Shown here in pieces: positions 11,916 through 61,295 of a stretch of 64,000 bases of DNA. Position 1 is the first letter of the stretch, and each line of letters opens with the position of its first letter. Below the pieces are notes generated by a model. That model was given only the letters and a program-made list of their open reading frames with translations. It was not told where the DNA came from and did no database searches. The DNA is from an uncultured Alphaproteobacteria bacterium (GTDB lineage Bacteria; Pseudomonadota; Alphaproteobacteria; Rhizobiales; Xanthobacteraceae): the NCBI GenBank assembly GCA_963790975.1, contig CAWBQV010000005.1, positions 124,948-188,947 of the forward strand. The letters are read 5' to 3'. Position numbers and translations under genes: made by a program.

Positions 11916-13133
11916 ATGGCCACGGTGACGATGAAGGCCCCTGCCCCGGGCGGGCTTTCCAACAAAGCGCGCGAATTGATGGAGGCCATCAACACCGAGG
12001 CCGGCAAGCATCATGTCTGGGTCCGCACGCAGGCCAATTCGCCGGCGCAGAAACCGTGGTTCAGCGAAACCAGCGGCGAAGGCTCCGGCCAGCTCGGCAC
12101 CGGGCGCGTCGCCGTCAATCAGATGAAGACGCTTCCGCACATGTGGAAGTGGCAGGAATACAGCCCCTACCTCAGTCAGATTTCCGAAATCGCAAGCAAG
12201 GCTGACGTTTCGCCGATCGAATTCGCCGACCGCCAGAGCATTCTGTTGCTCAATCCCGGACTGAACGGCCGCCTGCAAGTGACCAACACCATCCGCTGCG
12301 CCATCTCGATCTACAATCCCGGCGACGTTGCCCCGGTGCATCTGCATTCGCCCAATGCGAGCCGCACCATCCTGTCGAAAAACGGCGGCTATACCGTGGT
12401 CGAAGGCGAGAAGGTGACCGCGAACTACGGCGATCTCATTCTGACGCCGAACGGCACCTGGCACGACCACGGCAACAATTCCGCGGAGCCGGTCGTGTGG
12501 ATCGACACGCTCGACTGGCCGCTGATGGAATTCCTCGACGCCGCCTGGGTCGATCACGACATGCCCGGCGCGCAGGGCAACACCAATGTGCAGTCGGTCA
12601 CCGTGGCCGACGGCTATTCGCGCAGTCTCTACAGCCACGGCGGCATCAAGCCGACATTCGTGAATCACAATCGCGGCGTCGGCCACGATCCGGCGCCGCT
12701 GTTCCATTATCGCGGCGCGGACGTGCTGGACATGCTGCACAGCCTGCGCAACGAGAAGGGCGACGCTTACGAAGGCATCAAGGTCGACTTCGTCAATCCG
12801 GTCACCGGCGAGCCGGTGTTCAAGACGCTCAATTATTCGGCGCAACTGTTACGCCCCGGCGAAGAAACCGAATTCAAGCGCGAGACCGCCGGCACTTATT
12901 ATGTGTGCATCGAAGGCTCCGGCGTCACCGAAGTCGGCGGCAAGCGCTTCGAATGGGGCCACAACGATCTGTTCGTCGTGCCGAACTTTCTGTGGCGGCG
13001 CCATATCAATACCGGCAAGACCGACGCCGTGATCTATTCGGTGTCGGACTCGGCGCTGATGCGCAATATCGGCCAATATTACGCGCAAGGGCGCGCCAAG
13101 AATGGCAAGGTGACGGAACTGGTGCTGCACTAG
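11916..13133 (+). CDS. bicupin protein, gentisate 1,2-dioxygenase-like
   Basis: AAGGAGA Shine-Dalgarno. 405 aa. GDVAPVHLHSPNASR and TPNGTWHDHGN cupin metal-binding motifs. Confidence 0.75.
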   Translation: MATVTMKAPAPGGLSNKARELMEAINTEAGKHHVWVRTQANSPAQKPWFSETSGEGSGQLGTGRVAVNQMKTLPHMWKWQEYSPYLSQISEIASKADVSPIEFADRQSILLLNPGLNGRLQVTNTIRCAISIYNPGDVAPVHLHSPNASRTILSKNGGYTVVEGEKVTANYGDLILTPNGTWHDHGNNSAEPVVWIDTLDWPLMEFLDAAWVDHDMPGAQGNTNVQSVTVADGYSRSLYSHGGIKPTFVNHNRGVGHDPAPLFHYRGADVLDMLHSLRNEKGDAYEGIKVDFVNPVTGEPVFKTLNYSAQLLRPGEETEFKRETAGTYYVCIEGSGVTEVGGKRFEWGHNDLFVVPNFLWRRHINTGKTDAVIYSVSDSALMRNIGQYYAQGRAKNGKVTELVLH

Positions 13134-13142
13134 GCGCATCGT

Positions 13143-13493
13143 TCAGCCGCGGCTTTCGTAGAAATCGCGCGGCATGCACTGGCGTGCCGTTCGCTCCGGC
13201 TTGCCGATATTCGTCGGCGTTTTTCGTAAAATCTTCTGGCGCGTCTCCCACTGCGTCGCGGGCGGCACGCTTTTGAGCGCGCGCTTGAGACAATGGTTCG
13301 GATCGCGACGGCAGGCGCGCAGGCGCCGGCACATCTTCATCCGGCAACGCAGCCACAGCGCAAAGGCGTCGCAATAGCGCCGCTGCTGCCGCGCCCGTTC
13401 CGCCGCATAGCGTTTGGCATAGTCCGCCAGCGCGCGTTTTGGCTTCGCCGTTATTGCCGCCTCACTTGAACGCGTTCCTTGGCGCGTCCGCAT
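13143..13493 (-). CDS. Cys/Arg-rich small protein, paralog of 60101..60454
   Basis: GGAGGA Shine-Dalgarno before ATG 13493. The 40-aa core RRYCDAFALWLRCRMKMCRRLRACRRDPNHCLKRALKSVP aligns without gaps to the second copy (20/40 identical, 5 conserved Cys). Confidence 0.5.
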   Translation of the reverse strand: MRTRQGTRSSEAAITAKPKRALADYAKRYAAERARQQRRYCDAFALWLRCRMKMCRRLRACRRDPNHCLKRALKSVPPATQWETRQKILRKTPTNIGKPERTARQCMPRDFYESRG

Positions 13494-13534
13494 CCTCGTC
13501 CTCCACAATGTCAAACAGCGCACGGATTCTTCCC

Positions 13535-13685
13535 GTCACCACCGGGCACAGCCGTTCGCTGAACGGCGTCGCTTCGCTCGCCTATGCCGGTGGTCCATGC
13601 TGACGTGACGCAACGCCAGCCATTCCTAATTTTGTTTCGGCCTCTTCGCCGCATGGATTGCCGGGTCAAGCCCGGCAATGACGAA
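13535..13685. repeat. two-hairpin composite repeat, copy with a 40-nt insertion in hairpin A
   Basis: GTCACCACCGGG (13535-13546) and CCGGTGGTCCATGCTGAC (13587-13604) are split by a 40-nt insert with its own hairpin GCCGTTC/GAACGGC. The unit ends with the 33-mer ATGGATTGCCGGGTCAAGCCCGGCAATGACGAA (13653-13685). Confidence 0.8.
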
Positions 13686-13706
13686 GAAGAAGGAACGGAC
13701 GAAAGA

Positions 13707-14147
13707 GAAGGAAGCGGAACGCCGGCAGGCGCAGTATTTCATGGCCCGCACGCAAGCGGCGTGCGGGGTGCACCACGGAAGAGGCGGCTTGCGCCGCCCT
13801 CCGCTTGCGGGCGCGCTCACCTGCCGACGTTCCACCACGGTTTTCGCCAGGGAGACTCTCGTCCCCGAGGCTCAGCTCCGGGCCAGGCTTCTCGGAACAC
13901 GGCGTGGCGGGGGTTACTCCGCCGGCGCCGCGCCCGGTTGCAGCGAAGCACCCCGCATGCCGGTCATAGTGCCGGCAGGCATGATGCCCGGGCCGCCCGA
14001 GTGCAGGGCTGATGAGGCCATGCCCGCGGGACACCGCACCCGCCCCATTCCGTCCGGCATCACCCGGACGGTGTCCTATCGGGCAGGATTTGATTCGGTC
14101 ATTTTGTCACCGAAACGGTGACCGACGTCAACGAGAATGTGACGATA
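13707..14147. other. conserved hairpin-dense noncoding module, copy 1 (candidate structured RNA; strand unknown)
   Basis: Collinear nucleotide similarity to 60847-61295 with conserved stems, variable loops, non-3n indels and a compensatory base-pair change. No credible ORF. Confidence 0.4.
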
Positions 14148-14289
14148 CTTTTCCGGGCGATTGGCCTGCACTTTGGGAAAACTGACAGGCCGACCCGATC
14201 CGGTGACAAAAAAGGGGGTGCCGCCACTGGTAACAACGGGCGGCGATATCCTGATTCAGTCAAGCGCAAGGACAATCGCCATTTGACTC

Positions 14290-14382
14290 GTCACCACCGG
14301 GCTTGACCCGGTGGTCCATGCTGACTCGCCGAACGGGCGGGATTGGCGCATGGATTGCCGGGTCAAGCCCGGCAATGACGAA
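14290..14382. repeat. two-hairpin composite repeat unit
   Basis: GTCACCACCGGGCTTGACCCGGTGGTCCATGCTGACTCGCC followed by the identical 33-mer ATGGATTGCCGGGTCAAGCCCGGCAATGACGAA (14350-14382). Confidence 0.85.
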
Positions 14383-14441: not shown

Positions 14442-14534
14442 GTCACCACCGGGCTTGACCCGGTGGTCCATGCTGACTCGCCGGACGCGCGGCATTGCCA
14501 TATGGATTGCCGGGTCAAGCCCGGCAATGACGAA
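14442..14534. repeat. two-hairpin composite repeat unit abutting the GIY-YIG stop codon
   Basis: Same 41-nt hairpin-A segment as 14290. Identical 33-mer at 14502-14534. Confidence 0.85.
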
Positions 14535-14822
14535 TCAGACAATCTCGTCCCATAGATCGCGCCAGTCGGGATTCGTCGAGCGGATCAGGTCGATCTTCCA
14601 CCGGCGCGACCAATGTTTGATATTCTTCTCGCGTTGGATTGCGGCGATCGCCGTTGCGTGCTGCTCGTAATAGACGAGCATTTTGACATTGTGTGCATTC
14701 GTAAATCCTTCGACTGCACCTTCGCGATGCTCATAGACGCGGCGAACGAGATCCCGAGTCATGCCGACATAGAGCGTTCCGCGCGGCCGGCTTGCCAATA
14801 TATAGACCCAATAGCTTCTCAT
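14535..14822 (-). CDS. small GIY-YIG nuclease family protein
   Basis: MRSYWVYILASRPRGTLYVGMTRDLVRRVYEHREG...MLVYYE shows the GIY-(10)-YVG, Arg and Glu motifs. The longer track ORF start (14861) lies inside the repeat and is rejected. Confidence 0.85.
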   Translation of the reverse strand: MRSYWVYILASRPRGTLYVGMTRDLVRRVYEHREGAVEGFTNAHNVKMLVYYEQHATAIAAIQREKNIKHWSRRWKIDLIRSTNPDWRDLWDEIV

Positions 14823-14835
14823 GCCGGCCGTCAGC

Positions 14836-14868
14836 ATGGATTGCCGGGTCAAGCCCGGCAATGACGAA
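14836..14868. repeat. fourth identical copy of the 33-nt hairpin-B element
   Basis: ATGGATTGCCGGGTCAAGCCCGGCAATGACGAA, same orientation as the other three, 14 nt upstream of the GIY-YIG start. Confidence 0.85.
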
Positions 14869-42952: not shown

Positions 42953-43200
42953 GAAGCCGCAGAATAATCGAGAATAATTCCGCCGGCCGTTACCGACTTG
43001 CCATCGCGGAATTCCCGGCTTATATCGAATCCGTTCTGGGGATGGAGTTCCCCCGTAACCGCCATTCGGCTGATGACTCCTGCCGGGCGCTTGGCGTCGG
43101 TAGGAGTTTTCTTTTGCTCCCACTGTCTCCAAGACTGTTTATGTGACCGTTCGAAACGGGCGCGAGCCCTGTTGCGAGCGATCGCGCCGCGCATAGGAGA

Positions 43201-60100: not shown

Positions 60101-60454
60101 TTACGACTCGGCTTGAGTTTTGGCGCGGGTTTTCTGATTCTTCGCATCGTGCAGGCAAAGCGAATAGTGCGCATAGTGGTGGGCCATTCGGATGAAGCGG
60201 TCGGCATTTGCGGACGCCTCGGCCAGCATCCGATCGTGCGCGGCAACGCCGGCGTCGTACGGAACGCTCTGCCATCGGCTTTGCAGACAAGCGCCCTGAT
60301 CCCCCCTGCATCGCCTGGCGCTGCGGCACGGCCTGTACCGGCAGTCGCGCCAGAACGCGAACATGTCGCAATATTTCCGCGCGACGATCGCGCAGGCGGC
60401 GTCATGGCGCGCCTGCCATTCGTGCGGCGACAGCTTCTCTTCGCTTTTGCTCAT
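60101..60454 (-). CDS. Cys/Arg-rich small protein, paralog of 13143..13493
   Basis: AAGGAG Shine-Dalgarno before ATG 60454. Core RKYCDMFAFWRDCRYRPCRSARRCRGDQGACLQSRWQSVP shares the C-x8-C-x4-C-x5-C-x6-C pattern with the first copy. Confidence 0.5.
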   Translation of the reverse strand: MSKSEEKLSPHEWQARHDAACAIVARKYCDMFAFWRDCRYRPCRSARRCRGDQGACLQSRWQSVPYDAGVAAHDRMLAEASANADRFIRMAHHYAHYSLCLHDAKNQKTRAKTQAES

Positions 60455-60846
60455 GGCAATAGTTCTCCTTCTCGCGATGCATTTCTTCATCCCGCCCCGC
60501 GCTAGCGGGAAAGCCACGTCGAAAACAGCGTTTGGAGATGACGAATTTTTCAAGGTAGGGATTGGCATCGTTAGCCCGTCACAGCGAGGCATTGAAGCCG
60601 CATTTTGGCTGGCGAGGTAGAGGCGAGCCATTCGACGTAACGCATCCTGAGTACGCACTTTCGTCCGTGGTTCGGTGCGGGGGGCGGGAAGGCCACAATC
60701 CGATTCAGGCGTCGCGTCGAGTGGCCTACTTTAGCGGATATCGCTATACCCCCCCGCTATCGCGGGGGCGGATAATTCTTCACCGTTCTCGCGACGCATT
60801 CGCGCCCGAGGTTTTGCAAAAGGAAATTTCAAGAACCTCCCAAAAA

Positions 60847-61295
60847 GAAGGGAGGCGAAGCGCCGAAAGGCGCATCCAACCATTGGCCGCGTCAGGGTGA
60901 CGGGCGTTGCCGCCCATCCAACCGTCGCCGCGGCGCGCGTCCAGCGGGACGCGCTCGCCTTTCGGCGCTCCACCGCGGCTCTCGCCGGAGGCTTTTGGCC
61001 CTACTGGCTCAGCTCCAGGCCATGCTTCCTGGGACGTGGATCCAGCGGGCGTTACCCGCCATCACCTGTCCCAGTCCAGGGACAGCACCTCCCGCGCCGG
61101 CCGTAGTACCGGCGTGAATGATGCCCGGAGCCGCCCGGGCGCGGCTCGTAACGCCGCGCGCGGGGACCGCCCTCGTTCCACTTTCGAAAGTACCCTCGCG
61201 AAAGTACCCTCGCGAAAGGCCCCTCCGTGAACGAGATGGGGGATTGTATCCGATATGGTGACGGATGTCAAGAGAGTGTCACTAATAAAGTGACA
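60847..61295. other. conserved hairpin-dense noncoding module, copy 2 (candidate structured RNA; strand unknown)
   Basis: Collinear with 13707-14147. It contains the GNRA-capped stem GCGCC-GAAA-GGCGC, a GCGGG-CGTTA-CCCGC hairpin, a GCCGG-8nt-CCGGC hairpin and a 3' GTCAC/GTGAC hairpin. No credible ORF. Confidence 0.4.

Follow-up and report, generated by a model that had tools for sequence, protein, structure and literature searches.

Large bacterial RNAs with dozens of covarying base pairs are rare, and most of those known are ribozymes, riboswitches or scaffolds of ribonucleoproteins (RNPs); to our knowledge, OLE, ROOL, GOLLD and raiA remain unsolved. By functional analogy only, the described systems nearest to the one reported here are the OLE RNA of the Bacillota with its protein partners OapA, OapB and OapC, and RNase P RNA with RnpA. 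The present system was found in a stretch of 64,000 nt (the window) from an uncultured alphaproteobacterium of the Xanthobacteraceae (assembly GCA_963790975.1, contig CAWBQV010000005.1, positions 124,948 to 188,947), in which two small Cys-rich open reading frames (ORFs), ORF1 and ORF2, each follow a structured RNA gene on the same strand (Table 1). Across the family the ORF lies nearly always just 3' of the RNA, which suggests an RNA-protein partnership. Both the protein family and the RNA class are new, neither showing the membership features of a known family, and neither was found described in the literature.

Like the OLE locus, the locus reported here combines a large, ornate, conserved RNA with a small partner gene directly 3' of it in one bacterial lineage. 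It differs in that the RNA has no Rfam match and the protein no Pfam match to the Oap families, the protein is soluble, Cys-rich and all-alpha, and the RNA is shorter (about 400 nt, whereas OLE has about 610 nt), multi-copy and often without the protein gene. The pairs of RNase P RNA and RnpA and of tmRNA and SmpB are similar in RNA size (about 400 nt), in the long-range helices and GNRA loops of the RNA and in the partner, a very basic protein of about 120 amino acids. Their genes, however, are non-adjacent, single-copy and universal. Neither RnpA nor SmpB has a Cys cluster, and their folds are alpha/beta or beta; no Rfam or Pfam match to these systems was obtained. Many bacterial small RNA (sRNA) genes adjoin the gene of their regulator, as in OxyR/OxyS and GcvA/GcvB. 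The pairs OxyS/OxyR, GcvB/GcvA and SgrS/SgrR share with the present locus a noncoding RNA gene, an operator-like promoter and a neighbouring regulator-sized gene, and Cys-based sensing would be conceivable here; OxyR, GcvA and SgrR are, however, LysR or other helix-turn-helix (HTH) proteins of about 300 amino acids and are usually divergently transcribed, whereas the protein here has no recognisable DNA-binding domain and is encoded downstream on the same strand. The family is comparable to small all-alpha Fe-S proteins (WhiB-like proteins and the cluster loop of Rrf2/IscR) in being small, helical and basic, with a closely spaced C-x4-C-x5-C-x6-C as its only invariant residues; the IscR loop, C-x5-C-x5-C, resembles it and is taken as a lead rather than a test. 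The family nevertheless belongs to another lineage, lacks the WhiB motif C-xn-C-x2-C-x5-C, matches neither PF02467 nor the Rrf2 family in Pfam and has no structural match to them.

A new family of Cys-rich proteins

Judged from their sequences, ORF1 and ORF2 are paralogues, aligned by BLASTP without gaps over 82 residues with 27 identities (about 33%; E=2e-12). ORF1 starts with ATG at 13493-13491 and stops with TGA at 13145-13143; ORF2 starts with ATG at 60454, stops with TAA at 60103-60101 and is preceded by AAGGAG at 60470-60465. A scan with the family hidden Markov model (HMM) found ORF1 and ORF2 as the only members in the window. The original prediction, made for ORF1, had described a strong Shine-Dalgarno sequence, confirmed here as GGAGGA, and a 40-residue core identical to that of ORF2 at 20 positions without gaps, a count reproduced from the translations. 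It had also called the flanks of the two proteins unrelated, which is wrong, as the pairwise alignment extends beyond the core; the family profile of 123 positions covers positions 5-110 in its match to ORF1 and 4-122 in that to ORF2.

A word-indexed search retrieved 167 relatives for ORF1 and 94 for ORF2, all annotated as hypothetical and mostly 110-135 amino acids long. A profile search of 1.84 billion cluster representatives defined a family of 553 clusters at 50% identity with E<=1e-3, and of 146 at E<=1e-10. Among the 328 sequences covering the core, W47, C50, C55, C61 and C68 (ORF1 numbering) are 99% conserved, followed by C41 (97%), Y40 and G63 (95% each) and L69 (94%). Members are small, basic proteins of about 110-125 amino acids, and the family motif is R-x-Y-C-D-x-F-x2-W-R-x-C-x4-C-R-x4-C-x-G-D-x3-C-L, with the Cys spacing C-x8-C-x4-C-x5-C-x6-C. 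The five-Cys motif proposed for ORF1 is therefore borne out, four of its Cys at 99% and C41 at 97%, and needs extending by a sixth Cys near the C-terminus, which is subfamily-specific in that it is conserved inside each subfamily. The family medians are an isoelectric point (pI) of 10.0, a net charge of +13 and six Cys. ORF1 itself is an atypical member, with L48, R63 and T84 at positions where 86% of the family have R, 95% have G and 84% have A, respectively.

In 22 phylogenetically independent pairs the ratio of nonsynonymous to synonymous substitution rates (dN/dS) is 0.52 overall, 0.41 in the core and 0.57 in the flanks (p=5e-25). Non-synonymous changes thus fall far below the neutral prediction, and purifying selection on the family is clear but moderate. 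With homologues well beyond the two copies of the window, and with a ratio that is not near 1, the ORFs are real genes, as had been proposed.

Two AlphaFold2 runs, one of ORF1 with 40 sequences and one of the homologue P0034 with 94, gave the same all-helical topology, with a predicted local distance difference test (pLDDT) of 79 and 81.5 and a predicted template modelling score (pTM) of 0.66 and 0.65, respectively. The domain was left unrecognised in the original prediction, and it has no match in any library searched. For ORF1 and ORF2, Pfam and NCBIfam contain no family at E<=10, the best PHROGs matches reach only E>=0.075 and PADLOC has none; PDB sequences give no profile match at E<=10, Foldseek finds no PDB structure with E<5 for either model, and the ORF1 model has no match with E<1 among the viral folds of BFVD. 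No sequence or fold match to RnpA, SmpB, ProQ/FinO, Hfq or CsrA was found in Pfam, PDB profile or Foldseek searches. Features of a zinc knuckle or zinc ribbon are likewise absent, there being no CxxC in ORF1, ORF2 or the consensus, and the predicted fold is all-alpha.

A scan of 185,579 species-representative genomes with one nine-residue pattern yielded 46 loci, all in metagenome-assembled genomes (MAGs) and none in a cultured strain, an absence that holds for members matching the pattern. Eleven loci are labelled Xanthobacteraceae, 32 'uncultured Alphaproteobacteria', two (from one MAG) 'Proteobacteria bacterium' and one 'uncultured beta proteobacterium'.

Several database entries of the family have misleading gene models. 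In proteins that begin '...LDWD...', a translated stretch of the RNA is joined to a genuine family ORF. The long fusion proteins P0248 and P0299 were set aside as functional clues, being gene-caller read-throughs of the RNA into the ORF, as was P0271, with a C-terminal DUF559 on a long, probably over-called ORF. JGI lists P0099, a protein of 94 amino acids with 63% identity to ORF1, as 'site-specific recombinase XerC', apparently a mis-annotation. In MAG contigs L041, L046 and L040 the family ORF is split over reading frames, which indicates pseudogenes or long-read assembly errors. A cyclophilin-like gene (PF04126), directly 3' of the Cys-rich ORF or fused to it, is the only recurrent neighbour or fusion and is confined to one subclade.

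A structured RNA gene upstream of the ORF

The regions 5' of ORF1, of ORF2 and of their homologues from other samples align to one another, and this noncoding module is a genuine structured RNA. In an alignment of 39 sequences it folds into 11 helices with 87 predicted pairs. Standard pairs make up 97.2% of the cells; in slid controls, with the 3' partners displaced by 1-3 columns, the share is 39-45%. Both partners have changed in 47 pairs, compared with 12-20 in these controls, and the observed pairing and compensatory values were not attained in any of 500 column shuffles. The RNA is 360-440 nt long across the family, with common GNRA loops, insertions of whole hairpins and a 17-pair long-range helix that closes the 3' domain. 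A coding region was rejected as an explanation, given the 47 compensatory pairs and indels that are whole hairpins and not confined to multiples of three. The ORFs listed in the window at 13666-14034 (minus strand), 13584-14012 (plus) and 60907-61230 (plus) are translations of this GC-rich module.

RNA copy 1 of the window extends from a predicted start 3' of its promoter to a pyrimidine-rich tail past the long-range helix, and in type-1 RNAs generally this tail is the pyrimidine-rich CUUCCUUC followed by Us. Type-2 RNAs end in a CCUCCC/GGGAGG hairpin, located in RNA copy 2 at 60855-60836, and a U-rich stretch.

Searches of Rfam 15 with four RNA copies (both window copies, L004 and L067), at gathering and at E-value thresholds, returned no match for the RNA, and the E-value searches gave only chance-level or long-hairpin, miRNA-like matches outside the RNA core. 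The comparison included OLE, ROOL, GOLLD, raiA, HEARO, RNase P, 6S and the riboswitches, none of whose membership features the RNA shows. The sole match in the window at the gathering threshold is an unrelated fluoride riboswitch (crcB motif) at 43029-43089 on the plus strand (57.9 bits, E=1.8e-13).

Linkage and co-divergence of the RNA and the protein

Forty-four of the 46 genome loci have enough upstream sequence to judge the presence of the RNA. It precedes the ORF on the same strand in 38 of them, two have a 3' remnant only and four have none. The RNA is likewise present in the loci retrieved through P0020 and P0034, and it stands upstream on the same strand for all the divergent members examined with enough upstream sequence (P0268, P0320, P0346 and P0284), in genomic contexts that are otherwise unrelated. 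The distances between RNAs correlate with those between proteins (Mantel r=0.70; none of 2000 permutations gave a higher value). All 11 type-2 proteins have their RNAs in the type-2 RNA cluster, whose only other entry is an outlier, L055. One locus of each type occurs in at least five MAGs, which together with the co-divergence indicates that the whole unit was duplicated and that its two halves diverged together. Adjacency and co-evolution, as looked for in an RNA-protein partner locus, are both found here, a comparison that is one of functional analogy only.

The ORF is present without the RNA in L011, L024, L031 and L034. For the pair L024/L027, both RNA-less ORFs, dN/dS is 0.34; the ORF thus remains functional with no RNA in cis, and the dependence between the two is not strictly in cis, which is consistent with action in trans.

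The ORFs without RNA would also fit a linkage that is positional only, in which the function of the ORF is unrelated to the RNA, the ORF is expressed by read-through of a strongly transcribed RNA gene or from a promoter adjacent to it, and the pair was simply duplicated and co-inherited. Co-divergence is expected for any two linked genes, loss of the ORF with retention of the RNA is frequent, and the cyclophilin-like neighbour or fusion in one subclade hints at a function at the protein level. We consider this account improbable, as order, strand and spacing are kept over the family of 553 clusters, including members of about 25-30% identity in unrelated contexts, and the ORF has, apart from the RNA, no consistent neighbour.

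RNA copies without the ORF

The reverse case, an RNA without the ORF, is common. A metagenome scan with a pattern drawn from the RNA alone gave at least 120 loci. Among the matches listed, 69 RNA copies have enough sequence on the 3' side to be assessed; a family ORF follows 18 of these, and a broader HMM added none. This small share speaks against an obligate one-to-one partnership. The proposed role of the ORF as partner of the noncoding module is accordingly supported in part, namely in its linkage, in the structured nature of the RNA and in the co-divergence.

Both kinds of copy can occur together, as on one 1.18-Mb contig that holds L122 and L129. Compared with the ORF-linked reference locus L004, homology of the RNA-only loci begins at the promoter; it ends at the ORF start codon in L172 and L099 and within about 20 nt of it in L067. 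In L179 the ORF is cleanly deleted and the synteny on its 3' side is kept, and L135 has a remnant of 23 codons. The RNA thus works without the ORF, which was lost on many occasions; of the two, the RNA is the primary gene and the protein an accessory that it can dispense with, and the dependence between them is asymmetric. In the RNA-only examples inspected the next gene is convergent or unrelated. Another conserved gene 3' of these copies was looked for and rejected, the large ORFs found there being high-GC artefacts antisense to real convergent genes.

The position of the RNA upstream on the same strand, with a terminator-like 3' domain and a hairpin before the Shine-Dalgarno sequence of the ORF, could mean that the RNA regulates the ORF in cis, as a leader of the riboswitch-like sensor or attenuator kind. 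Such a reading is largely refuted and very unlikely, as 51 of the 69 RNA copies are ORF-less and yet keep their structure by compensatory changes, while the ORF-less examples precede convergent or unrelated genes, so that the RNA does not always lie in the 5' untranslated region of a regulated gene, as a riboswitch or leader would. Furthermore, elements resembling repetitive extragenic palindromes (REPs) insert freely between RNA and ORF, the spacing varies, and an RNA of about 400 nt and 11 helices is far larger than the known aptamers.

A conserved hairpin behind the RNA

The spacing between RNA and ORF is about 200-400 nt, and in much of the family this spacer contains a third conserved element of the locus, a hairpin of the form AAAACUCG-G-(G/A)(C/U)GC-loop-GC(G/A)(C/U)C-G-CGAG-AACG with covarying stem positions. 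At locus 2 of the window about 20 nt separate it from the 3' end of the RNA and about 310 nt from ORF2, and no match to the covariance model (R1) was found by cmsearch at locus 1. Across the family (loci L010-L159) its median distance past the RNA core is about 110 nt. It follows 37 of 53 ORF-linked and 27 of 34 RNA-only copies, hence about 70-80% with or without the ORF, and occurs also in the RNA-less ORF loci L024, L026, L027 and L031. In several loci its 3' flank is the Shine-Dalgarno sequence of the ORF (GCGAGAACGGGAGAG-N7-ATG), which means that transcripts with the ribosome-binding site of the ORF also carry the hairpin. Its candidate roles are those of a terminator, a processing site or a protein-binding site.

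The spacer as a whole was rejected as a conserved extension of the RNA, since only the hairpin of about 45 nt and its flanks are broadly conserved and the rest is REP-like insertion or lineage-specific sequence. REP-like palindromes are inserted between the RNA core and the hairpin. Palindromic elements of about 90 nt, unlike the 32-mer of the window described below, were observed just past the RNA 3' end and elsewhere (Table 1); their Rfam scores are those of miRNA-like hairpins.

Promoter and operator-like boxes

The RNA is preceded by a conserved sigma-70-like promoter, TTGACA-17-TAC(A/G)xx. RNA copy 2 has a near-consensus version of it, and in RNA copy 1 the -10 element is weak and the promoter was missed by a consensus scan (Table 1). 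Just 5' of the -35 element there is, family-wide, an imperfect palindrome CGTCnC-T5-n3-GnGACG, of which GTCACTTTATTAGTGAC is the version in the window, and an additional CGTCyC box lies within the promoter spacer. Both the palindrome and the box are conserved in type-1, type-2 and RNA-only copies (about 100 RNA loci). As sequence elements, these conserved boxes imply a transcription factor.

The protein itself might be that factor, a small redox- or metal-sensing transcription regulator that binds the CGTCnC/GnGACG boxes and controls the RNA genes, including the ORF-less copies in trans. The conservation of the boxes in all three kinds of copy agrees with this, the protein is basic, its invariant Cys could sense the redox state or a metal, the arrangement would explain how one ORF serves several RNA copies, and the proximity of sRNA genes to the genes of their regulators is a general precedent. 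Even so, we think this role unlikely: neither an HTH nor another DNA-binding domain was found in Pfam, NCBIfam or by Foldseek, the boxes are alike in type-1 and type-2 loci although the proteins are only about 33% identical, and the tandem order, with the ORF on the same strand behind a hairpin, is unusual for a regulator and its target.

The two loci of the window and their surroundings

Locus 2 is typical of the family: its promoter is strong, palindrome and hairpin are both present, and its type-2 protein follows the consensus. The divergent locus 1 has the weak -10 element, no hairpin and a REP-like 32-mer (13652-13683) between RNA and ORF. A sister contig, L180, compared with window positions 12950-14270, is identical for about 945 nt, which take in the RNA, the REP and the 5' half of ORF1, and about 4% divergent from mid-ORF1 onward, which indicates a recombination breakpoint inside the gene. 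Its 3' half of the ORF has ten differences, three of them synonymous, and restores the consensus G63. As a test of selection on ORF1 this comparison has no power, with only ten differing positions clustered 3' of the apparent breakpoint.

The four copies of the 32-mer, of which none would be expected by chance, cluster around RNA copy 1 and flank an ORF of 108 amino acids with a GIY-YIG domain (14535-14861, minus strand), the first codons of which are encoded by the repeat itself. Directly 5' of the RNA copy 2 promoter lies a gene for an IS200-like Y1 transposase of 195 amino acids (PF01797; 61355-61942, minus strand), probably a REP-associated tyrosine transposase (RAYT).

Several copies per genome in varied contexts, near REPs, the RAYT-like transposase and insertion sequence (IS) elements, together with the frequent loss of the protein gene, might suggest a toxin-antitoxin, anti-phage defence or mobile module with the RNA as antitoxin or guide and the protein as effector. 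We regard this as extremely unlikely. There is no PADLOC or PHROG match, the family is absent from viral contigs and plasmids (on which ground an origin from a phage or plasmid was also rejected), and the RNA is a single unit without the tandem repeats of a type III antitoxin; homology between copies starts at the promoter, without terminal repeats, and the paralogues, at 33% identity, are old, which speaks against recent mobility.

Table 1. Coordinates of the features discussed, in the window and in related contigs.
Feature	Sequence	Position	Strand	Remarks
ORF1	window	13143..13493	minus	116 aa, pI 11.3, Cys-rich, type-1 subfamily; stop codon included; family HMM E=7.7e-43
ORF1 Shine-Dalgarno GGAGGA	window	13499..13504	minus	5 nt before ATG; read directly from the sequence
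RNA copy 1 (divergent type 1)	window	13700..14096	minus	nhmmer 14149-13698, E=5.7e-79; ends inferred within about 15 nt
RNA copy 1 promoter-like region	window	14103..14131	minus	TTGACG, 17 nt, GACAAA; aligned to the family promoter
REP-like 32-mer CGTCATTGCCGGGCTTGACCCGGCAATCCATG, four copies	window	13652-13683, 14349-14380, 14501-14532, 14835-14866	minus	0 expected by chance
ORF2	window	60101..60454	minus	117 aa, pI 9.2, type-2 subfamily paralogue; family HMM E=9.3e-53
Hairpin (model R1)	window	60764..60816	minus	stem 60810-60788; cmsearch 44.2 bits, E=1.7e-12
RNA copy 2 (type 2)	window	60825..61236	minus	nhmmer 61330-60839, E=3.2e-109; ends inferred
RNA copy 2 promoter	window	61243..61271	minus	sigma-70-type TTGACA, 17 nt, TACAAT; 11/12 consensus matches
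Palindrome GTCACTTTATTAGTGAC	window	61278..61294	minus	just 5' of the -35 element of RNA copy 2; putative operator
Cyclophilin-like cases	L001	6409-6780		also L009, L014, L018, L028, L031, L059, L166; proteins P0284, P0323
Palindromic elements of about 90 nt	L004	5743-5829
	L067	794-926, 1070-1289
	L122	131-217

Proposed role of the protein and significance

We favour, with a little less than even confidence, the reading that the protein binds a metal and nucleic acid and serves the RNA, or its hairpin, as an accessory partner; read-through transcripts would be its source, and it would be able to act in trans. The ancestral unit consists, on one strand, of a promoter with operator-like boxes, an RNA of about 360-440 nt with the trailing hairpin, and the ORF 200-400 nt further on; it was duplicated into at least two types, in which RNA and protein diverged together. 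The RNA, as the primary gene, is self-sufficient, whereas the accessory protein depends on the RNA and would be translated from transcripts that run through the hairpin into the ORF. The invariant Cys cluster may hold a metal ion or an Fe-S cluster, and the basic surface may bind the RNA or the trailing hairpin, so that the protein might stabilise, chaperone or modulate the RNA, including, in trans, the copies without an ORF.

Several points weigh against this proposal. RNA or metal binding is suggested by composition (pI about 10, invariant Cys) and genomic linkage only, and no CxxC, known metal-binding signature or known RNA-binding fold was found in the libraries, by PDB profile or by Foldseek. 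Fifty-one of the 69 assessable RNA copies have no downstream ORF, and RNA-only and ORF-linked copies are interleaved in the RNA tree, even in clusters less than 20% divergent. The RNA-only copies keep their structure: in 33 of them 97.4% of cells pair, against 42-47% in slid controls, with 33 compensatory pairs against 6-15, so that the RNA can do without the protein in cis, and may have no need of it whatever. The co-divergence also follows from co-inheritance of neighbouring genes, and a cofactor in tight docking would be expected to show a stricter dN/dS than the 0.5 or so found here. Locus 1 looks partly eroded, with its weak -10 element, missing hairpin and substitution of G63 by R. Finally, the hairpin was rejected as a mimic of a helix of the RNA core that would allow autoregulation, as none of the RNA cores contains another match to the covariance model.

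A bolder form of the partnership, which we hold to be doubtful, is a new RNP built on the multi-copy, ornate RNA (about 400 nt), which might be catalytic or a scaffold and whose activity or stability would be tuned by a Cys4 metal or Fe-S protein in a redox- or metal-responsive manner, the hairpin serving as a docking or autoregulatory site.

A new class of ornate RNA that comes with a lineage-specific protein partner offers an experimental handle on such RNAs, and the protein family, with a conserved Cys/Trp signature and no detectable relative, is a candidate for a new metal- or nucleic-acid-binding fold. The hosts are uncultured soil Alphaproteobacteria, abundant in forest, bog and agricultural metagenomes, and the system may reflect a physiology unseen in cultured models.

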